Source: an uncultured Saccharospirillaceae bacterium (GTDB taxonomy: Bacteria; Bacteroidota; Bacteroidia; Flavobacteriales_D; CAJJDF01). Taken from it: DNA of 64,000 nt. The position numbers and the translations under genes were made by a program. Below are positions 1 through 53,344 of this stretch, piece by piece (within the stretch, counting starts at the first letter, position 1; every line of letters begins with the position of its first letter). The notes beneath the pieces were generated by a model. The model searched no databases. It saw nothing but the letters and a program-made list of their open reading frames with translations, and was not told the DNA's origin. The stretch lies in the NCBI GenBank assembly GCA_950054195.1, contig CATLPG010000010.1:622-64621 (forward strand), in the 5' to 3' direction.

Positions 1-2210
1 CTTCTAAAGTTATTTCCTTTGTAATTATACCACGTTGGCCTGAATTTCATTACTGTTTCTAACCCATAAGGCAAATCCTTTATATTTTCTTTAAGCCTAA
101 GATCAGAAATATTAGTCCAGCCCGAAACTCCTCCATTCATAAAAACTCCTGACGTACCTGCACTATTAGTTTCTAAACGATAGCCATTAGTAAACTTAGC
201 CATGAGCTGATCACTTGCTGTTGTAGTTGCTGAAGCTCCTAAAATTACTGACCCTGTATGACCTGATGCTATAGTATTGTTGTAACCTCCTGCTATAAAT
301 GAATATCCCCCTAAAGCATGATTCGAAAAGCCTCCAGTAACAACAGCATGTGTCCCCACAGCTTTGTTTCTTTCTCCACCTCCAACAAACGAATAGTCGC
401 CATTAGCACTATCTGAAAAACCTCCTCCAACAACTGAATGAGTACCATCTGCATTATTATATTCTCCTCCTCCTAAAAACGATGCTACACCATTAACAGT
501 ATTGTATTCACCTCCTCCCAAAAAAGACGAAATAGCATTAAGGTCATTATAAGCTCCTGCTCCTAAAAATGAATTATTTCCGTTTAACGTATTATAATAC
601 CCCCCTCCAACGAATGAATACTCTCCAAATGCGGTATCGTTTTGTCCTCCACCTACAAAAGAGTAATCTCCTGCGGAGTTACCCGCTAATCCACCTCCAA
701 CAAAAGAATTAGAACCACTAGCTGTATTGTTTTCTCCTCCAACAATGGATGATACGTTACCTACTGATCGATTGTAAGCGCCAGCCCCAACAAAAGAATA
801 GTCTCCTTCAGCTGTATTGTAATACCCTCCTCCTGCGAACGAATACCCCCCATTAGCTGAATCATTTTGCCCCCCACCTATAAAAGAATAATCTGAAATA
901 ACTTTATTGTCTTGTCCCCCTCCAATAAATGAATAATCTCCACTAGCAGAATTTCTTAATCCGGTTATAACAGATGATAAATTACCAGCAACTGTATTAT
1001 AAGCCCCTGCACCTGCAAAGGAATAATTACCACTTAGGATGGTAAATTCTCCTCCAGCTGAAGCTGAGTAATCTCCATTTACTCTAGCACTCCATCCACC
1101 ACCGACAAATGAATAATCTCCTACGTTAGCATTATCCCATTCAGACCCTCCTACAGCTCCTACTCTAAAGGCTGCTTTACGTGGATACCAAATCATTCTT
1201 GTACCTCCTCCTGATGTTGTTAGTGTATTTCCAGAACCAAAAGTTCCAATTGAAGTAATTAATCCATCATCCTGAACTTGTAGCCTTGGAGTTGCTCCAT
1301 CAGTTAATGCAAAATCTCCTGTTCCATTCATGTTGAACGTCATATTATTCGTTCCTTGAGTAATCGTTGTAGCTTGTGTTAGTGTTCCTCCTAATACAAT
1401 ATCGTTTGCATTATCAGTTAAACCATTTGTAGCAACAACATTTAAGGTTGCGGAACCAGAGGTTGCTCCTCCTACTAATCCATCTCCAGCTATGACATCT
1501 GTTATATCACCAGCAGCTCCTGCTCCTGCAATTGTAATATCTTGACCTGACCTACTCAGCGATATATTACTTCCTTGTAACAATCTAAAGGAGTCTCCAC
1601 TACCTGATATTGTTATCACTTGGGTAGTTCCAGAGTTAGTGACATTTAATGTTTGTGCATCAGTATTTATGGAGGAAATCGGAATGGTTCGAGTGCCTCC
1701 TCCATCAACAAGACGAATATTACCTGCATTAATATCAAAGGTGCTTACAAAATCATCTGTAGAGTCTCTATCTCCAGTATTTACTAAAGTTATCGAAGAG
1801 CCTGATTCAGAGATAGACAACCCTGCTCCAGCTTGAACAATAATACTATCTCCGTTTTCAATATCAATAATAGAAGTATTGGCTGCCCCATTTAATACAT
1901 TTAAATTTTGATTATCGGATAATCCACTATTATTCTCATCTACAAGACAAAACCAAGCTACGCCATTACACATTTTAACACAACTATCAATAACATCATA
2001 TACGATCATACCACTTATGGAAGGATCAGGGGCTATTGCTCCTGTATTTACAATAGGGATAATTAATCCTTTTGTACTGTCTTGTGAAACGATATGTACT
2101 ATAGCTTGCTGATTGGGTTGATTAACTCCAAAGCCATATTGAGCCTTAACTTCTCCAAAAACTGACAGAATAATAATAAAACAAAGAAGTTTAACATATT
2201 TACTCATCAT
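1..2210 (-). CDS. tail-fibre-like secreted repeat protein, 3' end cut by the window edge; its C-terminal S74-type intramolecular chaperone domain starts near position 107
   Basis: Absent from the ORF track because it runs off the left edge. The reverse strand reads ATGATG at 2210..2205, then MMSKYVKLLCFIIILSVFGEVKAQYGFGVNQPN.... This N-terminus is paralogous to 2587..4338. The frame is open for 736 codons down to position 3. It has 14-residue 'GDYSFVGGGxxNxA' repeats (~245..1120) and ends ...GWTNISDLRLKENIKDLPYGLETVMKFRPTWYNY. Confidence 0.8.
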   Translation of the reverse strand, partial: MMSKYVKLLCFIIILSVFGEVKAQYGFGVNQPNQQAIVHIVSQDSTKGLIIPIVNTGAIAPDPSISGMIVYDVIDSCVKMCNGVAWFCLVDENNSGLSDNQNLNVLNGAANTSIIDIENGDSIIVQAGAGLSISESGSSITLVNTGDRDSTDDFVSTFDINAGNIRLVDGGGTRTIPISSINTDAQTLNVTNSGTTQVITISGSGDSFRLLQGSNISLSRSGQDITIAGAGAAGDITDVIAGDGLVGGATSGSATLNVVATNGLTDNANDIVLGGTLTQATTITQGTNNMTFNMNGTGDFALTDGATPRLQVQDDGLITSIGTFGSGNTLTTSGGGTRMIWYPRKAAFRVGAVGGSEWDNANVGDYSFVGGGWSARVNGDYSASAGGEFTILSGNYSFAGAGAYNTVAGNLSSVITGLRNSASGDYSFIGGGQDNKVISDYSFIGGGQNDSANGGYSFAGGGYYNTAEGDYSFVGAGAYNRSVGNVSSIVGGENNTASGSNSFVGGGLAGNSAGDYSFVGGGQNDTAFGEYSFVGGGYYNTLNGNNSFLGAGAYNDLNAISSFLGGGEYNTVNGVASFLGGGEYNNADGTHSVVGGGFSDSANGDYSFVGGGERNKAVGTHAVVTGGFSNHALGGYSFIAGGYNNTIASGHTGSVILGASATTTASDQLMAKFTNGYRLETNSAGTSGVFMNGGVSGWTNISDLRLKENIKDLPYGLETVMKFRPTWYNYKGNNFR

Positions 2211-2414
2211 ATTATACGTTTTTAATGCACTAGTTTGGTTTGCAATATAATGTTTTGAAGTATGAACTTCTATCCTCTAAAACTGTTTTTAACATAAAAT
2301 ATAATGGGGTAAAATGTATTTTAGTTTTCATAAGTTTTACGCTGTATTACTTTTTCTACGAAAAAGTAAAGTTTTCGTTTCATTTATTGATTATAAAAGA
2401 TTAAAAATCTGCCA

Positions 2415-2440
2415 TATCTATATTTCTAGAAATGTAGATA
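2415..2440. repeat. near-perfect 26-bp palindrome centred on CTAG, in the gap between two fibre paralogs
   Basis: TATCTATATTTCTAGAAATGTAGATA; 12 of 13 arm positions are complementary. Function unknown (operator or AT-rich hairpin). Confidence 0.5.
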
Positions 2441-2586
2441 ATTAAATAATACTAATTAGTGTTGAAGGGATTATTTTTTAGGTTGATATTGTGGATATTA
2501 GATATTGTTTAGTATGCAAATTATTTATTTAAAAAAGTTGCTATAAAGCTGTTGTTTTATGAAATTGAATATTTAACAAACCGCTT

Positions 2587-4338
2587 TTAACGTTTAGATT
2601 CTCTCAACTGCTTACGTTGTTCCTCTATTATTTTTCTTTGTTCTTCGATCATTTTTTCTAATCTGCTTACTTCTTCTTCAATCGTTTTTTTAACGTCATT
2701 ATTCATCTTCCTAATTACACTCCTTAACTCTTCGTTTTCTTTTTGATTTTTTTTGATTAGTTCTTGCTGCTCTTGAATGGCCTTAACCATTGGAACCACA
2801 AATTGGGAATAGCTCACACTGTAATTATCTTTTTCAGAATTAGGAAGGTGTACCCCATCGAAATCATAACCAACATCTTTCATGGCAGACTCAACTTCTT
2901 GTGCAATAAAGCCAGAATGCTTGATATTTCTTGATGGCTCATAATTCAATTGACTCATTATTGCCTGTTTTAGAGAATCTTTAACATCGCTCATGAGGAA
3001 TTCATCAAACTTTTTTGTATCAAAATTATACGTTACAGGCCTTAGTTTTAATATAAAATCTAAGCCTACTACTTCACTATCGCTTATGTTTGACTTAAAT
3101 CTACCATCAGATGGAAAGGAATAAGCAACTTGTCCCTCTATGGTAGTTACACTTGCATTTCCAATTCTTACTTTATTGCTTGCATTAATATTACTTAGAG
3201 CTCCTAATGCTGTTGAATTATCAAAACTTGTTCCTGTTGGGAAAGCAAATGCCCCCAATGCTGTATTTAAACCACCATCGGTATTTCCATTCATAGACTC
3301 AAAACCTATGGCTGTATTGTGTTCTCCTACTGTATTATTTTGCAATGCTTCATGACCTAAAGCAGCATTATAAGAGCCAGTTGTATTTAATTCCATACTT
3401 GCAAATCCTAATGCTGTATTAAAACTAGCTGTGCCAACATCGATATCACCATTTGTAATTTCAAGTGCCGCTACCCCTATAGCCACATTTTGTCCTCCTC
3501 CAGTATTTTGGCTTAAACTCAACCCGCCAACAGCTATATTCTCATTTCCATCTACATTACTAAATAAAGCCCCAGATCCTAATGCAGTATTATACGAACC
3601 TACAGTATTGGTATAAAGTGCTCTATACCCAACAATAGTATTATATTCAGCACTTGTACTAGAGTTTCCGGTTTCATACCCTAAGTAAATATTTCCATTA
3701 GCACTTAAATCATCTGCAGCTCCAGCTCCTTCCCCAATAAAAATAGATTCTCCTGAGTTTAAAAACTCTAAAGTTCCTTGAGTTGTAAGTCGTAGTTTAG
3801 TTACATTATTTGTTCGAATAGCCAAACTCTGGTTATCAGTTGTTCCTAAGAAGTCTGTAGTGGAATTTGTGCCCGTGTTTCCAGATGTTAGCCACCCACT
3901 ATCAAGAACTCCAAAAGTAATTGTGTCTCCAGATTCAGTTAATTCGATATTATTTCCTTCTGAAAGGATAACATTATTACCATTTGAAATTTGGATGATA
4001 GAAGTGTTAGCGTTTCCAACTCCAACACTCAAATCTTGATTATCGGTCAAAATTGTATCATTTTGATCTACTATACAAACCCAAGCTACACCTGTACACA
4101 GTTTTACACAACTATCTACAGGATCGTAAGCTATCATACCCTTGAGAGATGGATCAGGAGCTACAGCTCCTGGTTTTAACATTGGAATAATAAAACCTTT
4201 AGTACTGTCTTCGGACACTATATGTACCATTGAATTTTCGTTAGGTTGGTTTGTACCAAAGCCATATTGAGAGAAAATTTCACTTGAATTTAATAACAAA
4301 AGAGTCACAATAAGGGGTATAAAAAATAGTTTTTTCAC
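2587..4338 (-). CDS. tail fiber domain-containing protein (signal peptide, YadA-head-like repeats, S74 intramolecular chaperone domain, coiled coil)
   Basis: 583-aa ORF with signal peptide MKKLFFIPLIVTLLLLNSSEIFSQ. Repeats of type 'NTALGxxALxxNTxGxxN' lie at ~3170..3700. The 'SDGRFKSNI' junction has its Ser at 3111..3109 and is followed by 'GFIAQEVE'. The K/E/Q-rich heptad tail covers 2590..2766. Confidence 0.8.
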   Translation of the reverse strand: MKKLFFIPLIVTLLLLNSSEIFSQYGFGTNQPNENSMVHIVSEDSTKGFIIPMLKPGAVAPDPSLKGMIAYDPVDSCVKLCTGVAWVCIVDQNDTILTDNQDLSVGVGNANTSIIQISNGNNVILSEGNNIELTESGDTITFGVLDSGWLTSGNTGTNSTTDFLGTTDNQSLAIRTNNVTKLRLTTQGTLEFLNSGESIFIGEGAGAADDLSANGNIYLGYETGNSSTSAEYNTIVGYRALYTNTVGSYNTALGSGALFSNVDGNENIAVGGLSLSQNTGGGQNVAIGVAALEITNGDIDVGTASFNTALGFASMELNTTGSYNAALGHEALQNNTVGEHNTAIGFESMNGNTDGGLNTALGAFAFPTGTSFDNSTALGALSNINASNKVRIGNASVTTIEGQVAYSFPSDGRFKSNISDSEVVGLDFILKLRPVTYNFDTKKFDEFLMSDVKDSLKQAIMSQLNYEPSRNIKHSGFIAQEVESAMKDVGYDFDGVHLPNSEKDNYSVSYSQFVVPMVKAIQEQQELIKKNQKENEELRSVIRKMNNDVKKTIEEEVSRLEKMIEEQRKIIEEQRKQLRESKR

Positions 4339-4490
4339 AGCTGTTTTTTTAACAAATGTTATTTCAAATAGAAATATAAACTTTTTTGATGAATCAGCCT
4401 TCTTTTGTTCTAAACAAAATTTTATGTCTAAATAAATATCAAACCTCTTCTAACAGTACTAATATTCAACAAAATGGGTGCTAGTGGCAT

Positions 4491-6062
4491 TTATTCAGAT
4501 TTGAAAACAGCTTTACCTTTTATATAAGTAGCAAGGACCTGAGTCTCCATGATTTCATCTTCTGGAGCTGTGATGATATCTCTTGAAAGTATAATAAAAT
4601 CAGCTTCTTTACCTATTTCTAGTGAACCAATAGCTGAATCTTGATGTTGGGCTATTGCATTCCAATACGTCATTGCTTTCAAGGCTTTGATTCGCCCTAT
4701 TTTTTCATTTTCTAAATAAGCTTTTGGGCCATCTTTTGGCTTCCTCACTACAGCTGAATAAAATGTTTTGATTGGGTTTATTTCTTCTACTGGAAAATCC
4801 GTACCAAAAGCTATCATACCGTTTTGATCTAACAATGTTTTTAATTGATAAGAATCTGTTAAACGATTAGCTCCAATTTTACTTTCTACCCAAGATTCAT
4901 CTGACAGACCATGAGAAGGTTGAACAGATGGTAAAATAGAGTATTTACTTAAATTGTTTACATCATTAGGGTGAGTCATTTGAGCATGTTCAATTCTCCA
5001 CCTTAAATCGTTTGTTCTTTCCAAAACCTCTCCCATTCCTTCACTCACTAATCTAAATGCTCCATCACCTATGGCGTGTACATTCAATTGGAAACCTGTT
5101 TCTTTACATAGCTCAGCTAATGCTATCAAACTATCTTTTGTTATTAGTAAATTTCCTTTTTGAGATTGATTAAGGTAGTTTTCTAATAAATAAGCAGTTG
5201 AAGAACCTAATGCACCATCTGCAACAAGTTTAAATGAACGTATGGTTACCTTATCACCTTGATAAACTCCTTTGTAAGCATCTTCCATTGTTTCTGGTGA
5301 TGGTTTTAGCATTCCATATACCCTAATTTTTAATTGATTTTCTTGGTCTAGGTATTTGTAAAGTTCGGCTTCATCTTTGGTTATACCTGCATCTGTTACT
5401 GAAGTAAGTCCTAACTTAACACAAGCATCTTGTGCATAACGAACAGCTTGCTTTTTTTGCTTGCGTGTGTAAGTGACTTTTGATAAAAAGAAATTAATTT
5501 GTTCATCGTTTAACACGCCATTTTTTATCTCAGCATCAGGGAACACCTCACTTAAGGCATTCTCGCTTACAATCATTTTATGTCCATCGATATACCATAT
5601 GTATATTTTATGAGTGGGGAATTGAGTGTTTAATGCATTAAATAATTTATCATTAGGTAATGTATTTGATAAACCATAACCCATTATCCAATCTTGGCTG
5701 GGTTTATCTTTTATAAAACCTGATAAGCTCGCTTCAATTTGCTCTACCGTTTTAGAATCTTTTAACGAAACCCCTTGGGCATTTAGTCCATAGCCTAACA
5801 AATGAGCATGTGCATCAATAAAACCTGGATAAATTGGATTTGTTTGAGCATCTAAAAATTGATCTGCACGAAACCTATTTTTCATTTCATGCTCCTTGCC
5901 TATTGCGATAATCTTACCATCTTTAATCGCCATTGCTTGTGCTATTTCAAACTCTGGATTTACGGTATATATTTTGGCGTTATGAACAACTAAATCTGCC
6001 TTTTCGAGCTTTACACACGAGCAAAACAATACAATAAAGAATAAGAAAAGTTTATTTCCCAT
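4491..6062 (-). CDS. amidohydrolase family protein (Amidohydro_3/YtcJ-like metal-dependent hydrolase), probable lipoprotein
   Basis: 523 aa. N-terminal 'LFCSC' lipobox-like signal, 'PGFIDAHAHLLGYG' HxH metal motif, and later 'NVHAIGD' and 'FGTDFP' motifs typical of the family. Confidence 0.75.
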   Translation of the reverse strand: MGNKLFLFFIVLFCSCVKLEKADLVVHNAKIYTVNPEFEIAQAMAIKDGKIIAIGKEHEMKNRFRADQFLDAQTNPIYPGFIDAHAHLLGYGLNAQGVSLKDSKTVEQIEASLSGFIKDKPSQDWIMGYGLSNTLPNDKLFNALNTQFPTHKIYIWYIDGHKMIVSENALSEVFPDAEIKNGVLNDEQINFFLSKVTYTRKQKKQAVRYAQDACVKLGLTSVTDAGITKDEAELYKYLDQENQLKIRVYGMLKPSPETMEDAYKGVYQGDKVTIRSFKLVADGALGSSTAYLLENYLNQSQKGNLLITKDSLIALAELCKETGFQLNVHAIGDGAFRLVSEGMGEVLERTNDLRWRIEHAQMTHPNDVNNLSKYSILPSVQPSHGLSDESWVESKIGANRLTDSYQLKTLLDQNGMIAFGTDFPVEEINPIKTFYSAVVRKPKDGPKAYLENEKIGRIKALKAMTYWNAIAQHQDSAIGSLEIGKEADFIILSRDIITAPEDEIMETQVLATYIKGKAVFKSE

Positions 6063-7074
6063 GTAACATAATGTCCATTTGATTACTCAATATCTCCCCC
6101 ATACTTTTACAAACGCTAAATGAGTCTGTACTATGATGCTCATTTAATTCTTCCTTAAGCTGCTTCATTTTTTCTGGGGTTGAAATTTTATCTACTTTCA
6201 TGCAGTTAATCAATCTTTTCATCTTTTTTTCAGAAGAATGATACCTTTTTTTGATTAGCGTGCGCTCTTCGAGCTGGTATTGATAGGTAGTTTCTGCATT
6301 CATTGTATCAATACAAAACTGAACGATTGGATAGTTCTCCACAAAGAACTGTGATAAGTACATTTTTTTATTCCCTTCGTAACATTGTTGATCAAAATCA
6401 ATTGCTCGTACACGGTATTGTTCTGCATCAAAATCTGGTGTTACATCAATTACATAATTGTATGATCTCATATCTCCTAACAGCTTTACAAAACAACGTT
6501 CATTGAACTTGATAAACTCTTTGGCCAACCTTACTTTGTTTAAGGAGTCACGATTTAAATCGTATTTAATAAATTGATCTCCTGGTATGCCAGAAATATG
6601 CTCCTCAATGAGTGTATCTTCATCAACTAAGTAATTGATTCGGTTTGGAGAAAGAATATGCTCTAACTCTAAACCATAAATACGTGATGCATCTACCTTT
6701 TTTACGTAAAAATAATCGTAGTTATCGTTAAATTGATTAATAATTCGAACACGAAAGGGCTTTGAGTTTCCAAAAGTACAATAATCAATGCGATCAACTT
6801 TTAAATGAGGCATTGCTGTTGTATCTCCCTCCATTTTAAGCATGAGATACATATATGTTAAGTGCTCATTAATTTCTTCCCAAGCATAAGGATCGTACAT
6901 TAATGTTTCCCAAAGTGTATCGTTTCCTTTCAAATCTTCTAAAGGAAAACTTCCTTTAGATTGTAGAAGATCTTCGTATTTTATTGGAATTTCTTGCTGT
7001 CTATCAAAATCAATTAAGTATTTAGAAAGTTTTTTTTTAACTGGATAAAAAGGCTTTTTTTTAGAGATAATCAT
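6052..7074 (-). CDS. conserved hypothetical protein with protein-kinase-like motifs
   Basis: 340-aa ORF that overlaps the downstream gene by 11 nt, suggesting an operon. Motifs are 'FYVKK', 'LLGDMRSYNYVID' (D-x4-N catalytic-loop-like) and 'AIDFDQ' (DFG-like). See findings. Confidence 0.6.
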   Translation of the reverse strand: MIISKKKPFYPVKKKLSKYLIDFDRQQEIPIKYEDLLQSKGSFPLEDLKGNDTLWETLMYDPYAWEEINEHLTYMYLMLKMEGDTTAMPHLKVDRIDYCTFGNSKPFRVRIINQFNDNYDYFYVKKVDASRIYGLELEHILSPNRINYLVDEDTLIEEHISGIPGDQFIKYDLNRDSLNKVRLAKEFIKFNERCFVKLLGDMRSYNYVIDVTPDFDAEQYRVRAIDFDQQCYEGNKKMYLSQFFVENYPIVQFCIDTMNAETTYQYQLEERTLIKKRYHSSEKKMKRLINCMKVDKISTPEKMKQLKEELNEHHSTDSFSVCKSMGEILSNQMDIMLHGK

Positions 7075-7080
7075 TTCGAT

Positions 7081-9063
7081 TTATTTATTGTCTCCAACTG
7101 AATAAAGCACTTTTTCATTAATTGTAATTGGGTACTTTTCTTTAAGCTCTTTAATCCACTCTTTTTCTAATTGGTTTTGATAATCAGAAATAACCATACC
7201 TCTTGTATCCTCAAGTTTTTTAGGCTCTGGATCAATAAGACGATGAACCTTGATAAAATAGAATTTGTTATCCAGTTTGTACGGTCCGTTTACTCCCACT
7301 TTTAACTTTTTATCCTTTAGTTCTTCTTTCTCTTCAATTTCGTAAATATCGGAGTCTAAATTTAAGTTTAGTTCTGATGTTTGGTTACTTTCCTTTAAGA
7401 TTTCATTTCCATTTTTACCGCTATTTGCCATACTCATTGCCTTTTTGATTATATCCTCTTCGTTTGAAGTATAAATCTCAACATCAGCTCGCTTACTCCA
7501 CATATAATCGTTTTTATTGGCTTCGTAGAATGCCTTAAGACCAGTAGTATCCCGAGATGCTTTTTTCCAAACTTTTTGATCTGTTAGTTCGAATAAAAGT
7601 ATGCCATCCTTGTACTCCTTCATTAAAGCTTTGTACTCTGGGTACTTCACTTCTAAACGTGAACGTTCAAAATCCATTAATGTTCTAGCTACCCATGCAT
7701 CATATTCCTCTTGCACATTAAGCTTTACATTTTTTGTTTTGTTTATTAGCAAATCAATAAAGTCACCAGCATACACTTTTGTCTTCTTAGCTAACCAACC
7801 TCCTTTAATGCTATATTTAAAAGCCAAGTTATCGTAGTATTTCTCTATTCTCCCCGAAAAATCCACATCTTCTAATGAGTCTGGTTTTAAGTATTCGTTG
7901 GTTAAATCAACTATCCATTTGTGTGAATAATCTTTAAAATGGTATTCCTTTTTAAGTTTATTAATAAAGCTTGCTTTTGATTTATTGCTTCTGGCATCTT
8001 TAGCAATTTTTCTTGTTAACTCACCTTCCATTTGTTCGAATGGTGGAACTGGCTTATAATCTAAACGTTTAATGATGTGAAACCCATATGAACTTCTAAC
8101 AGGTTTAGAGTAATCTCCATTATTTTCTAAAGCAAAAGCAGCTTCTTCAAACTTTGGTAGTAACTTCCCTTCAGAAAACCAATTAAGCTTTCCTCCATTA
8201 GAAGAGGATGTTTTATCTTCTGAATATTTTTTAGCTAAATCACTAAAGTCTTCTCCTTTTTGTAAACGCTGATAGATCTCATCTATTTTACGTTTTGCCT
8301 GAGCCACTTCTTTTTCTGATGTGTTTTCAGGAGCTTTGATGTAAATATGAGCCGTTAAGATTTGTCCCCTTGTTTTTCTTTGATCATCTACTTTAATTAA
8401 ATGATAACCAAAACGTGTTTTTACAGGCTCAGAAACCTCTCCAACTTTAGTATTAAAGGCTGCTTCTTCAAAAGGATAAACCATTTGAAAAGCTCCAAAA
8501 TAACCTAAGCTTCCTTTTCCAGTTTTTGCTGATGGGTCTTGAGAATATTTAACAGCAGCATCTTCAAATGATATTCTTCCAGAAACAATCTCGTCTCTAA
8601 TTGAGTTAATTTTATCAAGTTCTGCTTGTCCTGCTGGCTTTGGATTTCTCGATGCTTCCTTCGCATTAACATCTTGGATAAGTATGTGCGATGCTTTTAT
8701 TTGATTGGTTGTTCTGAAATAAGCATCGCGAACAAGTTGCTCGTTTACTTCTTTATCTGTTAAGTAAGGCTCTGATAATTGTTCTCTATAACCTGCCAAT
8801 TCTCGTTGAAACTTGGAAATAGTGTCCATCTTCAAATTCTCAGCCTCAGTAACTTTAAGCTTATACTTAATGAATAAGTCCATGTACTCATCTAAAGAAG
8901 CCTTATCATACTTTGGGTTCGGATTATTTTTGGTATAAATAGCAATAAATTCTGATTGATGAACATCATTACCATCAACCGTCATTAAAACTGGATCTTT
9001 TTGAGACTTCAATGATAAGCTAACGAATACTGCGAAAGCTAAAAAAAGTGACTTCTTCATCAT
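7081..9063 (-). CDS. peptidylprolyl isomerase, parvulin type (SurA/PpiD-like periplasmic chaperone)
   Basis: 660 aa with a signal peptide. Two parvulin domains are visible: 'ASHILI...FGYHLIKV' and 'TAHIYI...YGFHIIKR'. Confidence 0.8.
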   Translation of the reverse strand: MMKKSLFLAFAVFVSLSLKSQKDPVLMTVDGNDVHQSEFIAIYTKNNPNPKYDKASLDEYMDLFIKYKLKVTEAENLKMDTISKFQRELAGYREQLSEPYLTDKEVNEQLVRDAYFRTTNQIKASHILIQDVNAKEASRNPKPAGQAELDKINSIRDEIVSGRISFEDAAVKYSQDPSAKTGKGSLGYFGAFQMVYPFEEAAFNTKVGEVSEPVKTRFGYHLIKVDDQRKTRGQILTAHIYIKAPENTSEKEVAQAKRKIDEIYQRLQKGEDFSDLAKKYSEDKTSSSNGGKLNWFSEGKLLPKFEEAAFALENNGDYSKPVRSSYGFHIIKRLDYKPVPPFEQMEGELTRKIAKDARSNKSKASFINKLKKEYHFKDYSHKWIVDLTNEYLKPDSLEDVDFSGRIEKYYDNLAFKYSIKGGWLAKKTKVYAGDFIDLLINKTKNVKLNVQEEYDAWVARTLMDFERSRLEVKYPEYKALMKEYKDGILLFELTDQKVWKKASRDTTGLKAFYEANKNDYMWSKRADVEIYTSNEEDIIKKAMSMANSGKNGNEILKESNQTSELNLNLDSDIYEIEEKEELKDKKLKVGVNGPYKLDNKFYFIKVHRLIDPEPKKLEDTRGMVISDYQNQLEKEWIKELKEKYPITINEKVLYSVGDNK

Positions 9064-9115
9064 TTAAAAATATTTAAAAATTAGAAACGGATTTGAATTT
9101 ACATTATTATTCGGT

Positions 9116-10585
9116 TTATTTCAAACTATAATTAGGAGCTTCACTTGTTATTGCAACATCATGCGGGTGACTCTCCCTCATGCTAGCAGCGGTAATTTTA
9201 ATAAACTGGGCATCATTTTTTAGTGTTTCAATATCTTTTGCACCACAATACCCCATTCCAGATCTTAATCCACCAGCTAGTTGATGCATTACTTCGCTCA
9301 AATGACCTTTATAGGGAACTCTTCCAGAAATTCCTTCTGGAACAAGTTTTTTGTCATCACTTTCAGAAGCTTGAAAATAACGATCTTTAGACCCTTTTTT
9401 CATTGCTTCTAAAGACCCCATCCCCCTATAGGTTTTAAATTTTCTTCCTTGATAAATAACTGTTTCTCCTGGGGATTCTTCTACACCTGCAAACATGCTT
9501 CCAAGCATTACACTACTAGCTCCAGCAGCTATTGCTTTTACTAAATCACCTGTAAACCGTATACCTCCATCTGCAATAACTGGAACTCCGGTTCCTGCCA
9601 ATTCTTCAGCTACATCCATAACAGCCGATAACTGAGGCACACCAACACCTGCTATTATTCTTGTTGTACAGATTGAGCCAGGACCTATACCAACTTTTAC
9701 AGCATCCGCTCCATTATCCACTAGTATTTTTGCAGCTGCTGCTGTGGCTATATTACCAACTATTACTTCTAAATCAGGATAGTTTTGTTTTACTTCTTTT
9801 AATTTGTCAACTACACCTTGAGAATGGCCATGAGCAGTATCAATAACTATAGCGTCTACACCCGCATCATACAAAGCTTTCACTCTGTCTAGCGTATCAT
9901 CAGTTACACCAACTGCCGCAGCAACTCTTAATCTACCGTATGTATCCTTACATGAGTTTGGGTGCTCTTTTACCTTTATAATATCTCTAAAAGTGATTAA
10001 ACCTGTTAGCTTATTGTTCTCATCAACAATTAGTAATTTTTCAATCTTATTTTTTTGTAAGATTTGCTCAGCTTCTGACAAGTCTATTTTTTGCTTTGCA
10101 GTTACCAAATTAGTTGAAGTCATTACCTCAACAATAGATTTAGACAAATCTTTTTCAAATCTCAAATCTCTATTAGTAACAATTCCTTTTAATGTTTTAT
10201 TACTATCTACTACTGGTATTCCCCCTATTCCATGTTCACGCATTAAGTTTAAAGCATCTCCAACTAACGAACTCTCGCTAATTGTTACAGGATCTTGAAT
10301 CATTCCACTTTCAGACCTTTTTACTTTTCTAACTTCAGTAGCTTGTTCTTGGATAGACATGTTTTTATGAATAACACCTATACCTCCTTGTTGAGCGATA
10401 GCAATTGCTAGTTTAGACTCTGTAACCGTATCCATTGCAGCTGAAACAACAGGAGTATTTATGGTTATATTTCTCGTAAACTTAGAAGTTAAAGAAACTT
10501 CCCTAGGTAAAACATTTGAATAAGCTGGAATAAGAAGAACATCATCGTAAGTTAATCCTTCTTTGACTATTTTAGATTGTTGCAT
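9116..10585 (-). CDS. guaB: IMP dehydrogenase
   Basis: '[14 protein letters not shown]' N-terminus, a CBS pair, the '[11 protein letters not shown]' catalytic Cys loop and 'GGIRFTGD'. The ORF track starts at 10651, but the ATG at 10585 ([15 protein letters not shown], 489 aa) fits the family N-terminus. Confidence 0.9.
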
Positions 10586-10769
10586 TAAACTGTTTTTAGG
10601 TGTCTTTTTAATGCCCTCAAAGATAGTAAATACTTTTCTATAAAGCATCATATTAACCCGTGATTAACGCTGAGTTTTGAAAGAACTTGTAAAGCAACCT
10701 TTTTAATTAGTTATTCGTTTATCTTGTAATAATTTACTGGTATATTTATTTCATAAAAATTTATTTGTA

Positions 10770-13115
10770 TTGGCTTTAAGATATCATAACACACTTATTA
10801 TTATTTTTTTAATAACCAGTTTTTCCTTTTACTCACAAGAGGGGGTTAAAATAGCTCCGACCATTGGAACTCCTGATCCATCTGCCCTTTTAGATATTGA
10901 AAATGGAGTTGATAAAAAAGGTATATTAATTACTAGAGTAAGCTTAACAAACAGAACTATTACAAACCCGATTAACACACCTGCTAATAGTCTTTTGGTT
11001 TTCAACACTAATTTTACTGGCACGAATTTTAACGATGTTCAGCCTGGTTATTATTACTGGGATACAGACTCAACCAAATGGATTCGACTTTTAACTACTG
11101 CTAGCTCTGATAATCAAAACATAGACTCATTGACTTTAGTTGACGCTAACCTTTCTATATTTATTGAAGATGGTGACTCATCAAGTATTGATTTATCCCC
11201 TTTAAAAGACCATGACTGGTATGAGATAGGTTTAAATGAGTCTGCGGATAATATTAATGACACAATTTATACTTTGGGTCATGTAGGGATAGGAACGAAC
11301 TCACCCTCTACTACCTTAGATATACAAGGAACTCATAAACAAATTAGAATTGGTAACAATAATGAAGCGGGTTATATCGAAATTTCAAGAGGAGATGGTA
11401 ATTATACTGGGGGCTTAGGTTACGAAACTGCCACAGAAAACAACATATTGGAATTAAGGAATAGCTCTGGAGGAGCAGAAATCAATGTAATTACAAATAC
11501 AGGTGTTGGAACTAGTGGAGGGTTTAACGTACAATCAGTAGGAACTGCAGCTACGCATATGACCGTTAGAAACACAGGAAGAGTTGGTTTAAGTACTATT
11601 AACCCTACTCACACACTAGATGTTAATGGAGAAGCAAGGGTTAGGGTTGTTAATGACACGCTAGAAGTTGCGAACCTACTAACAGCCAACACCAATGGTG
11701 TTATAAAAAAATTAGCCTATGATAGCTTAGTAAGTTATTTAAAAGATAGCATCAAAGATTTAGATTGGTACAAATCAAACACCAATACAACTCCTAACGA
11801 CATAAATGATTCTATTTACACCTTGGGAAATGTTGGTATTAAAACGCTGAATCCTTCTTATAGCTTACATATCGATAACGGGAACTTATTTAACATAACC
11901 AATAGACAAGCTGCCATACTAACCGAAGGTTTTTTTGGAGGAGGGGTAATCATGAAGGATATAACTCCCAACGGTTTTTCTGGTATGTTTATGAGCACAA
12001 CCGGTCCGAACGAAAACAAACTTCATTTATCTGTTTTAGATAATGGTTCGGGAAACTTAGAAAACTCTCATTTTACACTCAATGAATTTGGAGAAGTTGG
12101 TATTGGTACAACCGACCCATTGGAAATTTTACATATTGAAACTGGTAACGCTATTATAAATGCAGACCAATCTGGACTTAAATTTTCTGCAGGTAACATA
12201 ATGATTAGAAGAAATGGCGAGGATTTAGAATTTGTTGAGCTAGAAGATGGAGCCAATCTACCCCAATCTCCAATTGCTGGTGGCGGTAACGTTTGGATGC
12301 ATTTCGATGATCAAGGAGGAGAAACCGCTAGAATAGGTATTGGTACAATTACTCCCACTGATCGTTTACATGTAAATGGCTCAGTAAGAATTGGTATAAC
12401 TACAGCGGCTGGAGCTGGTCCTGTTGCGGGCTATGGAGACCGCTTATACTTTTCAGGAGGGCCAACTAACCCAATTTTCGGATCAGAAAACAGTGACCTC
12501 ATTTGGATGGCTAGATATAATTCTGGCATTGATTCAACTGAACTAAGGTTAAATATAGGTGACAATACAGCAGGGCATGATATTTTTAATGTAGGAAGAG
12601 TTACTGCTGGAGTTTGGACCCCTACAATCTCTGCAATAATTAGTCAAAGGCGAGTAGGTATAAACACCGAAACCCCTACCGAAGCTTTAGAAGTTGTTGG
12701 TAACATTTTAGCTAGTGGTACCATTACCCCTTCTGACAAGAGATTTAAGGAAAATATATCAATTATTGATTCTGCACTACTCAAGCTTCATCAATTAAAT
12801 GGTGTTACTTACACGATGAAAGAAGAATTTAAATCCAAAGGGTTTGAAGATAGAGTTCAAATTGGTGTAATTGCACAAGAAGTCGAAGCGATATATCCTC
12901 AACTCGTTAAAACAAATCCAGAGACTGGATATAAAGGGGTAGACTACAGTAAATTTACCCCTATATTAATAGAAGCAATAAAGGAACTAGATAAACAAGT
13001 TCAAAATTTAAAATCTGAAAATAATTCTCTAAAAAGTCAATTAGACGAACGTGATGTTATGGAAAAAAGGCTTCAAAGTCAAATTGATAAAATAAACCAA
13101 TCTTTAAGTCAATAA
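10770..13115 (+). CDS. tail fiber domain-containing protein (S74 intramolecular chaperone domain plus coiled coil)
   Basis: 781 aa with a TTG start that yields a signal peptide. The conserved N-domain is 'GVKIAPTIGTPDPSALLDIEN...KGILITRVSLTNRT...GYYYWDTDSTKWIRL'. A 'VGIGTxxPxxxLxVxG' motif recurs. The 'SDKRFKENI' Ser is at 12732, followed by 'GVIAQEVE' and a C-terminal coiled coil. Confidence 0.8.
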   Translation: MALRYHNTLIIIFLITSFSFYSQEGVKIAPTIGTPDPSALLDIENGVDKKGILITRVSLTNRTITNPINTPANSLLVFNTNFTGTNFNDVQPGYYYWDTDSTKWIRLLTTASSDNQNIDSLTLVDANLSIFIEDGDSSSIDLSPLKDHDWYEIGLNESADNINDTIYTLGHVGIGTNSPSTTLDIQGTHKQIRIGNNNEAGYIEISRGDGNYTGGLGYETATENNILELRNSSGGAEINVITNTGVGTSGGFNVQSVGTAATHMTVRNTGRVGLSTINPTHTLDVNGEARVRVVNDTLEVANLLTANTNGVIKKLAYDSLVSYLKDSIKDLDWYKSNTNTTPNDINDSIYTLGNVGIKTLNPSYSLHIDNGNLFNITNRQAAILTEGFFGGGVIMKDITPNGFSGMFMSTTGPNENKLHLSVLDNGSGNLENSHFTLNEFGEVGIGTTDPLEILHIETGNAIINADQSGLKFSAGNIMIRRNGEDLEFVELEDGANLPQSPIAGGGNVWMHFDDQGGETARIGIGTITPTDRLHVNGSVRIGITTAAGAGPVAGYGDRLYFSGGPTNPIFGSENSDLIWMARYNSGIDSTELRLNIGDNTAGHDIFNVGRVTAGVWTPTISAIISQRRVGINTETPTEALEVVGNILASGTITPSDKRFKENISIIDSALLKLHQLNGVTYTMKEEFKSKGFEDRVQIGVIAQEVEAIYPQLVKTNPETGYKGVDYSKFTPILIEAIKELDKQVQNLKSENNSLKSQLDERDVMEKRLQSQIDKINQSLSQ

Positions 13116-13118
13116 ACA

Positions 13119-16100
13119 ATGATAAACAAGTATATTATTTTTGTATTACTCCTATTAATAACTGGATTTTCTTTTTCTCAGCAAGGGGTTAAGATAGCTC
13201 CAACTGTGGGTACACCAGACCCTTCTGCTATGCTAGAAATTGAAAATGGAACAGATCAAAAAGGAGTTTTAATTACTCGTGTTAGCTTAACAAATCGAAC
13301 AATAGCAGCACCAATTAATACCCCTGCCAATAGTTTATTGGTATTCAATACTAATTTTTCAGGTAACACGTTCAATGATGTTCAACCTGGTTATTACTAT
13401 TGGGATACTGATTCAACGAAATGGATAAGACTCGCTACTTCATTAGGGTCTGATGATCAAAATATTGACTCTATTACACTAACCGATGATGAACTAACTA
13501 TCTATATTGAAAATGGAAATTCTTCTAATATTGATTTATCTCCTATTAAAGATCATGATTGGTATGAAGTAGGCACAACAGCATCTGCTAACAGCATCAA
13601 CGACTCTATATTTACTTATGGAAATGTTGGTATAGGCACCAACTCCCCTACATATATATTAGAAACAGCTGGTGCTAATAGTGATGCCTCGATAAACAAC
13701 ATTCGTGTAGGAAGAGGAGGAGGAGATCTAATCACGAATACTGTAGTTGGTAACAATGCACTATCTGCAAACACCACTGGAAACAATAATGTAGCAGTAG
13801 GCTTAGGGGCATTATCAAACAATACAACGGGTATACACAACAATGCTATTGGTGTTTCTTCACTTCAAGATAACCTTACCGGTAGAGGAAATGTTGGAGT
13901 TGGAATTAACACGCTACAAAGTAATACTGATGGTAGTTTTAATATTGCTCTAGGAGAAACAGCTTTACAATATGCTACTAGTGGCACGAGCAACATAGGA
14001 ATTGGCTTAAGGAGTTTAAGAAACAATATAACGGGCAGCAATAATATAGGTGTTGGTACTGATGCCATTGCTAATAGTACAGGTAATGGTAACATTGGAA
14101 TAGGTCAATTAGCCGGCTTTGATGTCTCGGCTAGCTCTAATGGAACATACATTGGAAACTCAATAAGAGGAGATTTCGTTGGAGATAATAACATTGTTAT
14201 TGGTTCAAAAAACTATTCAATTGCAGGACCAGAAAACACAACAGCACTAGCATCAAGCAATTCAATATTTATAAATGCAAATAATGGAATAGAAAGAATT
14301 AGAGTCAATAACTTAGGTGATGTTGGAATAGGAGCTTTTGATCCAACACATAAACTAGACGTTAATGGAGAATTAAGATTAAGAACCATTATAGATACAC
14401 TAGAAATAGCTAACCTTTTATCTTCCAACACAAATGGAGTTATAAAAAAACTAGCTTACGATAGCTTGGTGAGTTATTTAAGAGATAGCATTAAAGATGC
14501 TGATTGGTACGAATTAGGAACAACTAACTCCCCTACAAATATTAATTCTCCAGTATATACACTAGGTGATGTTGGCATTGGTACAACTACACCAAGCAAT
14601 CAATTAACGGTTAACGGTAATAGCTCAATCATTAATGGTTCTCTCGGTTTTAATAGAAATCCATCAACTGGAGCATTACCTACTGGGGGTATTGCTAATT
14701 CAGGGAAATTTCAGGTAACCTATCAGTCAGACCATATTAGCTTGGAGTCTTATAAGCAAAATTCACTAACTGCAGATGGAAATTTAGTTTTAGATACCAA
14801 TGGAAATGTTGGTATTGCTACTACTACTCCTCAAGGAAGATTGGATGTTGAAGCAAGTGATGAATTTTATCTTGGAAGAAACGATGCAAACGCACGAATA
14901 ATAGCTAGTAATGGAAATAACTTACAGTTTAAGCCACCGGTTGATGGAAATGAAATACAGTTCATGGACGGTAACACGAATAATAGTATGGACATTACTG
15001 TTGGTCCTGAAGCTACAATACAAATTCTTACTCCTGTTGCAGGAGCTGGTGATTTGGCCATTATTACTGATCCCGCTTTTGGAGATGATGGTGATGTTAT
15101 TTTTAGAGGTGGTACAGCCTCTGCAGAGCGAATGCGAATAAAAGGTAGTGGAAAAGTTGGAATTGGAACTCCTGCTCCAACACAATTATTACATGTCCAA
15201 GGGAACGAATACTTACAAGACACACTTTTTGTTAGGGACGCAATAAGAATGAACCCCGAGAATAGTATTGGAATAGCTCCAGACATTTGGATGAGACAGC
15301 AAGGATATATTGTTTCTGAAGACAATACCTTTCTCGTATCAAATGGAAATAATGATGGGAGTGGTGATCTAATTTTTTCTTCTGGAGCTGATGTTTTTGG
15401 TGGAGCTGGGTATACTGAGCACATGAGGGTACTTACTGCTAATGGAAACGTAGGAATTAACAACACTGCTCCCGAAGAGAAACTGGTTGTTAATGGAGTC
15501 GCTCGATTAGCTGGTATACCAACAACAGATTCAACAGATACTAGAATTCATCTAGAAATAGGAACGAATCCTATTGGTAACAACTTTACACAACCAGGAA
15601 GCGATAGACATTTTAGAATTTTAACTGAAACAAACTACCAAACTCAATTTAGAGATTGGATGATATTTGAGGCTATGGACGGAAATGATCCAGAGCAAGA
15701 TGGAGGATTTGTTTTTAGAAGCAGTAATAATTTAGGAGCAAAAAATGATGTTTTAATTGTTCAATCGAGATCTGGAGGAAGAGTTGGTATTAATACAATT
15801 ACACCAACTGAAGCACTACATGTTACAGGTAATATATTAGCAAGCGGTACTATTACACCATCAGATAGTAACTACAAAAAAAATGTTGCTCCTCTCAATA
15901 ATGCCCTAGAACAAACACTTAAACTTAGAGGAGTATCCTATCAAATGAAAGAAGAACACCAAGAGCAAGGCTTTGGAAAAGGAAATCAAATTGGAGTAAT
16001 TGCCCAAGAAGTTGAAAAAATTTACCCCGAACTCGTGAGAACAAACGAAGAAGGATACAAAGGAGTTGATTACAGTAAATTTACACCTATATTGATAGAA

Positions 16101-16274
16101 GCCATTAAGGAGCAACAAGAAATTATTGAGTCGTTAAGAAATCAAAACAATCAATTATCTAAAGATAATGATGCATTAAAGACGTCTATAGAGAATCAAA
16201 ACAAGGTGGATGATAGTCTTCAAAAACAGATTGACGAGTTAAAAGAAATATTAAATCAAACCAGTTCAAAATAA
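13119..16274 (+). CDS. tail fiber domain-containing protein (S74 intramolecular chaperone domain plus coiled coil)
   Basis: 1051 aa, starting 3 nt after the previous stop. Its N-terminal ~170 aa are paralogous to 10770..13115. YadA-head-like 'NNxAxGxxALxxNTTG' repeats lie at ~13750..14130. The 'SDSNYKKNV' Ser is at 15861, followed by 'GVIAQEVE' and a coiled-coil tail. Confidence 0.8.
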   Translation: MINKYIIFVLLLLITGFSFSQQGVKIAPTVGTPDPSAMLEIENGTDQKGVLITRVSLTNRTIAAPINTPANSLLVFNTNFSGNTFNDVQPGYYYWDTDSTKWIRLATSLGSDDQNIDSITLTDDELTIYIENGNSSNIDLSPIKDHDWYEVGTTASANSINDSIFTYGNVGIGTNSPTYILETAGANSDASINNIRVGRGGGDLITNTVVGNNALSANTTGNNNVAVGLGALSNNTTGIHNNAIGVSSLQDNLTGRGNVGVGINTLQSNTDGSFNIALGETALQYATSGTSNIGIGLRSLRNNITGSNNIGVGTDAIANSTGNGNIGIGQLAGFDVSASSNGTYIGNSIRGDFVGDNNIVIGSKNYSIAGPENTTALASSNSIFINANNGIERIRVNNLGDVGIGAFDPTHKLDVNGELRLRTIIDTLEIANLLSSNTNGVIKKLAYDSLVSYLRDSIKDADWYELGTTNSPTNINSPVYTLGDVGIGTTTPSNQLTVNGNSSIINGSLGFNRNPSTGALPTGGIANSGKFQVTYQSDHISLESYKQNSLTADGNLVLDTNGNVGIATTTPQGRLDVEASDEFYLGRNDANARIIASNGNNLQFKPPVDGNEIQFMDGNTNNSMDITVGPEATIQILTPVAGAGDLAIITDPAFGDDGDVIFRGGTASAERMRIKGSGKVGIGTPAPTQLLHVQGNEYLQDTLFVRDAIRMNPENSIGIAPDIWMRQQGYIVSEDNTFLVSNGNNDGSGDLIFSSGADVFGGAGYTEHMRVLTANGNVGINNTAPEEKLVVNGVARLAGIPTTDSTDTRIHLEIGTNPIGNNFTQPGSDRHFRILTETNYQTQFRDWMIFEAMDGNDPEQDGGFVFRSSNNLGAKNDVLIVQSRSGGRVGINTITPTEALHVTGNILASGTITPSDSNYKKNVAPLNNALEQTLKLRGVSYQMKEEHQEQGFGKGNQIGVIAQEVEKIYPELVRTNEEGYKGVDYSKFTPILIEAIKEQQEIIESLRNQNNQLSKDNDALKTSIENQNKVDDSLQKQIDELKEILNQTSSK

Positions 16275-22160: not shown

Positions 22161-22826
22161 TTAATTATCAGTAAAAGCAAATTGTACAATATTAGCTCCC
22201 ATTTGCAAAGCTTTTTCTCTAACGTCTTGAGGGTCGTTATGCACTTCTTGATCTTCCCAACCGTCTCCTAAATCGCACTCAAAAGAGTAAAAAACCATTA
22301 ATCGACCGTAATCATCAAATATTCCAAATCCTTGAGCAGCCTTATTATCATGCTCATGTACTTTAGGTAAGCCACTTGTAAACGTATATTTCTGCTTGTA
22401 GATTTCATGGTTAAAGGGCAGTTCTACTAGCTCTTTATTAGGAAAAACTTTTTTTAGTTCGTTTCGCACAAATTGATCCATCCCATAGTTATCATCAATA
22501 TGTAAAAATCCTCCTGAAAGTAGATACATTCTTAGGTTTTCTACATCATCTCCATTAAACACCACATTTCCATGTCCTGTCATATGAATAAATGGATAAT
22601 TAAAGATTTCAGGACTCCCAACGTCCACTTCAACTACTTCTTCATCAATATTCATATTTAACTGCTTATTACAGTATTTCACTAAATTAGGAACTGCTGT
22701 TGGGTTTGCATACCAATCCCCTCCTCCTCGGTATTTTAAAACCGCAAATTGATAGGTGGGATCTGGCAAAAATGTAAATGACCAAAATACAACTGCAATT
22801 ACGCTATATGTAATAAATTTCATCAT
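22161..22826 (-). CDS. DUF4159-like domain protein
   Basis: 221 aa with a signal peptide. 'FAVLKYRGGGDWYANPTAVPNL' and 'GGFLHIDDNYGMD' resemble the DUF4159 family as I remember it. Overlaps the upstream gene by 4 nt. Confidence 0.5.
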   Translation of the reverse strand: MMKFITYSVIAVVFWSFTFLPDPTYQFAVLKYRGGGDWYANPTAVPNLVKYCNKQLNMNIDEEVVEVDVGSPEIFNYPFIHMTGHGNVVFNGDDVENLRMYLLSGGFLHIDDNYGMDQFVRNELKKVFPNKELVELPFNHEIYKQKYTFTSGLPKVHEHDNKAAQGFGIFDDYGRLMVFYSFECDLGDGWEDQEVHNDPQDVREKALQMGANIVQFAFTDN

Positions 22827-23605: not shown

Positions 23606-23643
23606 ATGAAGTTAACTTACATTAAAGATACTTAAAATTGTGA

Positions 23644-40325: not shown

Positions 40326-40334
40326 AATTGGTCT

Positions 40335-40823
40335 ATGAAAAGTCTTGCCATATGCTTATTTGCTATAGTGATTAACACTCTTAGTTACTGTCAAACAATA
40401 GAGCTTAATGAAATAAGACAAAAATACAATCAGGTTAATGGGGATATTGATAAAGCCAAAACTCTATTTGACCGACTTGATAAAAAAAATGATAAAAACT
40501 CAGTAGAAAAAGCATACTTAGGTGTTATTAAATCTATAATAGCAGATTCATTTTACAATCCATTTAACAAATATTCTTGGTTTATTGATGGAAAAAAAAG
40601 TATAGAGAGCTCTGTCAAAAACTCACCTACAGATCCAGAAATTCGATTTTTAAGATTATCAGTTCAATATAAAGCACCTAAATTTTTAGGCTACTATAAT
40701 AATATCAAAGAAGATACAATCATCGTATTAAAATCTGCCAAATACTTCAAGGAGATTGGTATTTATGAGCCTGTAAAAGAATTCATTGTTAAAGAAATGA
40801 AGCTTTCTGATATTAGCTTCTAG
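40335..40823 (+). CDS. hypothetical secreted protein
   Basis: 162 aa with a signal peptide, starting 9 nt after the regulator gene. No family recognised. Confidence 0.45.
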   Translation: MKSLAICLFAIVINTLSYCQTIELNEIRQKYNQVNGDIDKAKTLFDRLDKKNDKNSVEKAYLGVIKSIIADSFYNPFNKYSWFIDGKKSIESSVKNSPTDPEIRFLRLSVQYKAPKFLGYYNNIKEDTIIVLKSAKYFKEIGIYEPVKEFIVKEMKLSDISF

Positions 40824-53342: not shown

Positions 53343-53344
53343 CT

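Follow-up and report, generated by a model that had tools for sequence, protein, structure and literature searches.

Proteins resembling phage tail fibers are encoded four times at one locus of an uncultured Bacteroidota bacterium (GenBank contig CATLPG010000010.1), and the question they raise is whether they serve a phage-derived particle or the cell itself. The window considered here, the whole stretch of 64,000 nucleotides that was analyzed, corresponds to positions 630-64629 of the 1.09-Mb metagenome scaffold ERZ23495411 scaffold_1, whose end lies 629 bp left of window position 1. An earlier note on this DNA had described four coding sequences of common design; all were present at the coordinates it gave, as judged from the list of open reading frames (ORFs) and the translation of ORF1, and we refer to them as ORF1 to ORF4 (Table 1). 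With moderate confidence, we regard these genes as encoding chromosomal, Sec-exported, homotrimeric, phage-tail-fiber-like adhesins, a Bacteroidota counterpart of the fibers of the superfamily of mosaic adhesive trimers (MAT) in Bdellovibrio bacteriovorus (Caulton et al. 2024, Nat Microbiol; PMC10769870).

An intramolecular chaperone at the C-terminus of all four proteins

When the four proteins were searched with the Peptidase_S74 hidden Markov model (HMM; PF13884), for which the gathering score is 22 bits, truncated ORF1 scored 25.1, ORF2 40.4, ORF3 61.5 and ORF4 59.4 bits, with E-values ranging from 2e-5 to 9e-17 and thus far beyond chance. Full-length ORF1 likewise carries PF13884 in the precomputed Pfam table. 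The Ser-Asp junctions that had been placed at 107, 3111, 12732 and 15861 coincide exactly with Ser702, Ser410, Ser655 and Ser915, and each contributes to a Ser-Lys dyad of the form S-D-x-x-x-K (SDLRLK, SDGRFK, SDKRFK and SDSNYK). When the four C-termini were aligned with those of MyRF and gp37 of phage S16, the Asp after the Ser was invariant and the Lys at +5 and a G-x-I-A-Q-E block were conserved; Ser, Asp and Lys were unchanged throughout an alignment of 26 sequences. On the parent scaffold, full-length ORF1 ends in GFIAQEMEE followed by a K/E/Q-rich tail. The tract after the junction, described earlier for three of the genes as some 110 aa with an IAQE block and a coiled coil, does contain the block and a helical tail in all four proteins, but it is longer than had been stated, with 122-173 aa following the Ser.

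Structural comparison led to the same domain. By sequence, the ORF3 C-terminus matched the intramolecular chaperone auto-processing (ICA) domain of MyRF (7dc3, E 3e-13) and the tip of the long tail fiber of phage S16 (6f45) in the PDB. A profile built on the tip together with the S74 domain also matched 8jov, the GA-1 neck appendage chaperone (3gud), the T5 L-shaped fiber (8hqz), Bdellovibrio bd2133 (8ond, E 8e-8) and entries named 'cell wall surface anchor family protein' in two groups, 8ojn/8onb/8onc and 8ol4/8onf, which are, in our reading, additional MAT structures from Bdellovibrio. ORF3 residues 610-781, modeled with AlphaFold2, gave a mean predicted local distance difference test score (pLDDT) of 84.7, exceeding 90 in the S74 part, and a terminal helix of 55 residues; Foldseek matched this model to 7dc3 (E 9e-7, probability 1.0), 3gud (probability 1.0) and the endosialidase chaperone 3gw6 (probability 0.92). 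The HMM matches above the gathering score place an S74 domain at each of the four junctions, as the earlier note had proposed, and are backed by the PDB sequence matches and the fold match; we regard the domain as a genuine intramolecular chaperone. In PHROGs, the last 120-200 residues of the proteins belong to many phage tail-fiber families, and the repeat regions of ORF2 and ORF4 fall into tail-spike or virion-protein families.

Table 1 Position of the four fiber genes and of their parts in the window (aa, amino acids)
Gene	Feature	Position	Strand	Details
ORF1	Fiber gene	<1..2210	(-)	Full length 824 aa on parent scaffold; final 88 aa and stop left of window
ORF1	Signal peptide	2142-2210	(-)	
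ORF1	N-module	~1926-2141	(-)	
ORF1	15-aa repeats, beta-roll-like	141-1220	(-)	Residues ~331-690
ORF1	S74 junction SDLRLKENI	105-107	(-)	Codon of Ser702
ORF2	Fiber gene	2587..4338	(-)	583 aa
ORF2	Signal peptide	4270-4338	(-)	
ORF2	N-module	~4054-4269	(-)	Three conserved Cys
ORF2	17-aa repeats	3079-3798	(-)	
ORF2	S74 chaperone and helical tail	2590-3111	(-)	Junction SDGRFKSNI, Ser410 = 3109-3111
ORF3	Fiber gene	10770..13115	(+)	781 aa
ORF3	Signal peptide	10770-10835	(+)	
ORF3	PTL_trimer N-module	~10836-11099	(+)	
ORF3	Shaft	11100-12731	(+)	Five VGIGTxxPxxxL capping-loop motifs
ORF3	S74 chaperone and long helix	12732-13112	(+)	Junction SDKRFKENI, Ser655 = 12732
ORF4	Fiber gene	13119..16274	(+)	1051 aa
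ORF4	Signal peptide	13119-13178	(+)	
ORF4	PTL_trimer N-module	~13179-13442	(+)	
ORF4	17-aa repeats	13569-14198	(+)	Plus seven capping-loop motifs
ORF4	S74 chaperone	15861-16271	(+)	Junction SDSNYKKNV, Ser915 = 15861

Signal peptide and N-terminal module

By inspection, each of the four N-termini consists of a short charged n-region, a hydrophobic stretch of 10-15 residues, a small residue at -1 and a Gln at +1, with predicted cleavage boundaries (marked by a slash) of VKA/Q, IFS/Q, FYS/Q and SFS/Q in ORF1 to ORF4. A small residue followed by Gln is the pattern expected of Bacteroidota signal peptidase I substrates (the 'Q-rule'), and the Sec signal peptide that had been assigned to each protein is borne out by this inspection.

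Directly after the signal peptide, all four proteins carry a module of ~70-90 aa. The precomputed Pfam table lists it as PF26696 (PTL_trimer) with strong matches in ORF3 and ORF4, a weak match in ORF1 and none in ORF2; a literature search for the meaning or origin of the name 'PTL_trimer' or of PF26696 found nothing. The modules of ORF3 and ORF4 are close to each other, and those of ORF1 and ORF2 (57% identity) form a diverged type with three conserved Cys, which fits an oxidizing compartment. Between the two types, BLASTP detected no similarity (E 0.69), and alignment of their profiles by hhalign gave a probability of 97.8% (E 1e-12). An exhaustive phmmer search with the ORF2 module retrieved 78 representatives, in which many of the matched stretches were also recognized by the PTL-type HMM. 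From these profile comparisons the two subtypes can be regarded as homologous; the earlier claim of a conserved N-domain in each protein is therefore right at the superfamily level. An AlphaFold2 model of the N-module as a monomer was all-beta with a pLDDT of 79.5. No sequence relative of the module was found in the PDB, and Foldseek returned nothing below E 0.1 in the PDB or BFVD for this model, which is monomeric and may mislead, since the module is probably trimeric.

Shafts and repeats

Between module and chaperone the proteins diverge. Repeats recur every 15 aa in ORF1 and every 17 aa in both ORF2 and ORF4, and ORF3 has none. Three of the ORFs are repetitive, as had been described, with periods of 15 and 17 aa in place of the 14-15 residues given. 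The kinship of these repeats to YadA heads comes down to a resemblance: YadA_head had no Pfam match in the four proteins even at E<=1, no other adhesin family in Pfam was matched, and an NCBIfam scan returned sub-threshold noise only. A capping-loop motif, [VIL]G[IV][GNS]xxxPxxx[LIV], occurs five times in ORF3 and seven times in ORF4. One match of ORF1, to a 'grass antifreeze beta-roll', was sub-threshold (17 bits against a cut-off of 30), and we read it as repeat composition, not as ice binding.

ORF3 and ORF4 are separated by 3 bp and are probably one operon. Three segments of their DNA are 71-74% identical, a pattern that we interpret as an old tandem duplication. Recombinational switching between the oppositely oriented gene pairs, as in a shufflon, was considered and rejected, there being no long inverted repeats, only the old duplicated segments.

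Distribution of the N-module

A genome scan with a narrow N-domain alignment located the N-module at 72 loci, all of them in Bacteroidota, spanning Flavobacteriales, Chitinophagales, Sphingobacteriales, Bacteroidales and Saprospiraceae; cultured carrier genera include Chryseobacterium, Arenibacter, Myroides, Dokdonia, Flavobacterium and Nubsella. At 30 of the 72 loci there are two to eight fiber genes. The module lies within the first 60 residues in 119 of the 132 N-module ORFs at these loci, and among those 119 a hydrophobic segment precedes it in 114 and a small-Gln boundary in 113. An HMM scan of the collected loci yielded 139 N-module ORFs, 33 with an S74 end and 106 with none. The neighbors of the homologues are ordinary cellular genes (for example GH92, cyanophycin synthetase or PolA) or arrays of five, and a search of the 72 loci for a conserved partner gene (exporter, anchor or chaperone) revealed no recurring family of neighbors beyond a single group of six syntenic loci, mostly in Chryseobacterium.

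Phage sequences reached other parts of the proteins. Matches to GenBank phages numbered 692 records for ORF3 and 71 for ORF2, and those listed cover shaft and S74 only, starting at residue 99 of ORF3 and residue 189 of ORF2. In IMG/VR, the N-module was found on one 344-kb contig among 2.9 million contigs. The named matches of the module profile were all from Bacteroidota, where the module also occurs joined to ends of the collagen-like, Collar and lectin-like types.

The module also occurs in other architectures. At one locus (L067:324-10922), five or six secreted proteins in a row, with Big_1, cadherin, DUF6923 or DUF4347 domains, have a PTL-type module as their extreme C-terminus, and the same holds for P0240, P0254, P0255, P0265 and P0267, which contain CBM4_9, F5/8-type-C or right-handed beta-helix domains. 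No recognizable C-terminal domain (CTD) of the type IX secretion system (T9SS) was present in these secreted multidomain proteins. Three to ten internal tandem copies of the module occur in P0197, P0213, P0234, P0235, P0246 and others, which reach 3794 aa and some of which are S74-ended. These tandem-copy giants include proteins of other phyla with diverged copies, one from an Alphaproteobacteria and one from an Acidimicrobiia metagenome-assembled genome, so the module is not confined to Bacteroidota.

Genomic context

To characterize the surroundings, all remaining window ORFs with 150 aa or more were compared with Pfam. None of them matched a phage, lysis, integrase, sheath, tube or baseplate family, in line with the earlier statement that the 64 kb hold no phage structural, lysis or integrase gene. 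Between the fiber gene pairs are genes for an amidohydrolase, a 340-aa protein with no Pfam match, a peptidyl-prolyl isomerase (PPIase) and guaB, and the fibers do flank the amidohydrolase, PPIase and guaB genes as reported. CcmB and CcmC follow ORF4, and further right are housekeeping genes for an M1 peptidase, urocanase, MnmA, an FAA hydrolase and photolyases. Pfam also confirmed T9SS cargo elsewhere in the window (Por_Secre_tail, CHU_C, SprB repeats and PorP/SprF). The fibers themselves, which had been described as lacking a T9SS CTD, matched none at E<=1, with the same library detecting both CTD types in other window proteins.

The sequence left of position 1, where the earlier note had advised looking for a prophage or tailocin, could be followed in a second assembly with an identical ORF1 (L078), which reaches 5.7 kb past the ORF1 end. 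This left flank (~5.4 kb) contains two more signal-peptide fiber genes and no prophage or tailocin genes. Both flanks also carry ordinary genes of the cell. To the right of the window on the same scaffold (L081:3080-23931), a second cluster of fibers comprises a 533-aa S74 fiber, a 2636-aa fiber with both PTL_trimer and S74 (P0195) and a 2279-aa protein whose phage-like matches are faint only. The scaffold thus carries at least 8 fiber genes within ~90 kb, some S74-ended and at least 1 without S74.

The two left-flank fibers (L078:5828-11406) have a third N-terminal type, QNVGIN..NP.NALHV...GVVKYI. The first has at least 1168 aa in addition to a scaffold gap; DS(L/F) repeats abound in it, and its non-S74 tip of ~250 aa has no Pfam match. 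Its gene starts with the 71-aa fragment found where the scaffold ends (L001:14754-14966). The second exceeds 446 aa.

Several other features of the window were recorded. The 340-aa ORF between the fiber pairs (6052-7074, minus strand), whose position is conserved in a second assembly (L077), overlaps the amidohydrolase gene by 11 bp. The T9SS cargo block at 45066-62582 includes a gene for a protein of 2758 aa, in which RCC1 repeats and PKD and Ig-like domains are combined with a type-A CTD. Two further proteins encoded there, of 1544 and 1040 aa, have SprB repeats and CHU_C CTDs of type B, the shorter one also containing an internal type-A CTD fragment at residues 607-636; a PorP/SprF gene comes after them. 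What looks like a light-response cluster at 39453-44347 starts with the gene of a MerR/B12-binding (CarH-like) regulator, after which come two ORFs of 162 aa with no assigned family and genes for a DPRP (cryptochrome/photolyase-related) protein and a DNA photolyase. At 22161-24765 on the minus strand, a DUF4159 gene is followed by two ORFs with no assigned family; the one of 373 aa resembles PorV weakly, below threshold (E 0.003; 17.6 bits, with the cut-off at 27). Positions 63370-64000 are the 3' end of a gene for a 1416-aa signal-peptide protein with 'GGGSISGTTYTPA' repeat domains, a Cys-rich end and no Pfam match. Neither tRNA genes nor Rfam families at gathering score were found across the 64 kb.

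Proposed mechanism and alternative explanations

We infer from these results that the four proteins are trimeric, cleave themselves, reside at the cell surface, are anchored by the N-module and act as adhesins. In the mechanism that we propose, the signal peptide would direct each chain to Sec, and the cut by signal peptidase I would leave Gln at +1, likely cyclized to pyroglutamate under the Q-rule. Three S74 domains would associate via the helical tail and nucleate folding of the shaft, from C- to N-terminus, into a triple beta-helix or beta-roll. The Ser-Lys dyad would then cut the chain at the Ser, releasing a chaperone of ~120-170 aa and exposing the distal tip, which in ORF3 and ORF4 would be a capping-loop beta-helix resembling the tips of Bd3182 and MyRF. 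The PTL module may hold the fiber at the cell envelope from its N-terminal end, and the variable shaft and tip may recognize ligands outside the cell, probably glycans of other cells or of particles; the many diverged paralogues would then amount to a repertoire of specificities.

The S74 matches, the signal peptides, the non-phage context and the distribution of the N-module support the earlier proposal of cellular, self-processing trimeric fibers. The function, called unknown there, can be narrowed to that of a probable surface adhesin by the MAT precedent. The presence of a 'tail fiber domain-containing protein' in outer-membrane-vesicle proteomes of Tannerella forsythia (PMC10682907) is a weak supporting lead.

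Several observations weigh against surface adhesins of the MAT kind. Pfam and NCBIfam scans found no lipobox, beta-barrel anchor or T9SS CTD in any of the four fibers. The fibers consequently show no known route to the Bacteroidota surface and could be periplasmic or released. The PTL module is also found internally, in tandem and at C-termini, which makes an exclusive role as an 'anchor' uncertain, and the monomer model of the module has no structural match hinting at a ligand. The capping-loop motif is absent from ORF1 and ORF2. Moreover, the likeness to MAT fibers lies in design and tip, the MAT entries in the PDB being tips, and homology of the PTL module to the MAT N-domain is conjectural.

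Homology of the shaft and S74 regions to many phage tail-fiber and tail-spike families raises the possibility that the proteins are fibers of a phage-derived particle (a prophage, a tailocin, an extracellular contractile injection system (eCIS) or a structure like the type VI secretion system) that is encoded elsewhere and assembled on a baseplate in the cytoplasm. The context examined covers only ~90 kb of the 1.09-Mb scaffold, S74 proteins are 'shell' genes of eCIS operons without Afp13, with eCIS being common in Bacteroidota (PMC8213781), and S74-ended eCIS fibers have been described in Microscilla (PMC12923769). Cytoplasmic baseplate assembly is nevertheless incompatible with the Sec-type signal peptide found on all four proteins and on 114 of the 119 N-terminal homologues. 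Furthermore, families of sheath, tube, baseplate, capsid, terminase, lysis or integrase proteins are absent from the 64 kb and the flanks seen, no phage-like gene recurs beside the homologues in 72 genomes, and the N-module is reached by none of the GenBank phage matches listed and by one IMG/VR contig only. We therefore consider such a particle highly improbable. That the proteins are exported tailspike-like enzymes, polysaccharide depolymerases or lyases whose catalytic beta-helix is folded by S74 as in phage endosialidases, seems quite unlikely on other grounds: none of the four matched a family of glycoside hydrolases, lyases, pectate lyases or sialidases, even at E<=1, their shafts are built of 15- and 17-aa repeats or of capping-loop modules typical of fibers instead of large catalytic beta-helices, and no SusC/SusD genes of the polysaccharide-utilization-locus type adjoin them. 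In favor of enzymes, the S74 domain was defined on endosialidase tailspikes and bears the Pfam name 'Chaperone of endosialidase', marine Flavobacteriia are polysaccharide degraders, and the matches of ORF2 include SPO1-like tail spike proteins and, at E 1e-58, a PHROG family of tail spikes.

The fibers may also be exported and not anchored at the surface, being instead periplasmic, released or carried in outer-membrane vesicles, as soluble lectin-like cross-linkers or matrix fibers. This would accommodate the lack of a recognized outer-membrane translocation or anchoring signal, the related annotation class in the T. forsythia vesicle proteomes and the occurrence of the PTL module at either end or in repeated form, which suits a bivalent or multivalent binder. 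However, the module directly follows the signal peptide in 119 of 132 ORFs, which suggests a fixed, cell-proximal role, and Bdellovibrio, the sole tested system of this design, has its fibers on the cell surface (PMC10769870); we place this explanation on the unlikely side. A further idea, fairly unlikely in our estimation, would make PTL a module for envelope anchoring or sorting that acts independently of its position and defines a surface route independent of the T9SS CTD, as its place after the signal peptide in the fibers and at the extreme C-terminus of CTD-less secreted multidomain proteins could suggest. If PTL did bind a conserved outer-membrane or lipopolysaccharide element, or if an exporter recognized it, this would explain how fibers with neither CTD nor lipobox reach the surface and stay there.

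Returning to cell-encoded surface adhesins as the favored explanation, part of the picture is already known: both domains are in Pfam, such proteins are routinely annotated by NCBI, and the design has a studied precedent. No functional study of Bacteroidota S74 fibers was found in the searchable literature, and no Bacteroidetes terms were present in the supplements of the MAT paper that were examined. Cell-encoded copies of phage receptor-binding fibers are an emerging class of bacterial adhesins, for which functional work has so far dealt with the MAT proteins of Bdellovibrio only. The spread of this design across Bacteroidota, often in arrays of 2-8 genes, suggests a general surface-recognition toolkit that could matter for attachment to particles or algae, for interbacterial contact and for colonization of hosts or biofilms. 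The annotation 'Tail fiber domain-containing protein' in a Bacteroidota genome is no evidence of a prophage.

Comparison with known systems

Among systems with related parts, the S74-ended fibers of eCIS (PMC8213781, PMC12923769) share with the window proteins the S74 end, Bacteroidota hosts and a phage-like shaft. They are encoded in eCIS operons and carry N-terminal baseplate-attachment (eBAP) domains, in contrast to the signal peptide found here; no eCIS gene family was found by Pfam in the window or the flanks seen, eBAP profiles not being part of the search. The chaperone-ended fibers of phages (endoNF of K1F, 3GW6; GA-1 gp12, 3GUD; T5 pb1; S16 gp37, 6F45) have in common with them the S74 domain, the Ser-Lys dyad, the IAQE block, the helical tail and homologous shafts. 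Phage fibers have no signal peptide and begin with a virion-attachment part, whereas the proteins described here have a Sec signal and a cellular PTL module and are encoded in housekeeping surroundings.

Trimeric autotransporters of the YadA family are likewise trimeric surface fibers with short Gly/Asn-rich repeats, and some homologues of the window proteins carry YadA_head (PF05658). The four proteins differ from them in having neither a YadA family match (E<=1) nor a C-terminal beta-barrel anchor, and the polarity is reversed, with the conserved end at the N-terminus and the C-terminal S74 part predicted to be cut off. The ICA domain of MYRF (7DC3) is the best PDB match by both sequence and fold, including an RVGINT..P.EAL capping loop before the cleavage Ser. 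MYRF is a transcription factor of the endoplasmic reticulum membrane in which cleavage releases a DNA-binding trimer, and it forms no fiber.

The closest overall parallel is with the MAT fibers, for which S74 self-cleavage (at S782 of Bd3182), trimeric tips, surface location and glycan binding have been shown experimentally, and whose N-domain has been proposed to bind a surface element (PMC10769870). The differences are several. The carriers here are Bacteroidota, with no mark of a predator in the window; the N-module has ~70-90 aa (PF26696) as opposed to ~130 aa in MAT; the PTL module is also C-terminal or in tandem; and the shafts of ORF1 and ORF2 consist of 15- and 17-aa repeats with no capping loops.

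The design is closely similar. In MAT proteins a signal peptide precedes a conserved, beta-rich N-domain and a long fiber; there are members with and without S74, and a capping loop is shared with MyRF (PMC10769870). All four window proteins, on inspection, pass from the signal peptide straight into a conserved N-domain rich in beta structure; the fibers are long, at ~600-2600 aa; and S74 members (SDxxxK) and non-S74 members share a common N-domain, at 33 and 106 ORFs, respectively, the neighboring left-flank gene being one of the non-S74 kind. Capping loops of the form VG(I)G/N..P...L, common also to MyRF, are present here in ORF3 and ORF4 only. In both systems there are many paralogues per genome, and shaft and tip are homologous to phage fibers. 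Finally, it is through the capping-loop region that the tip profile matches bd2133 and the presumed further MAT structures.

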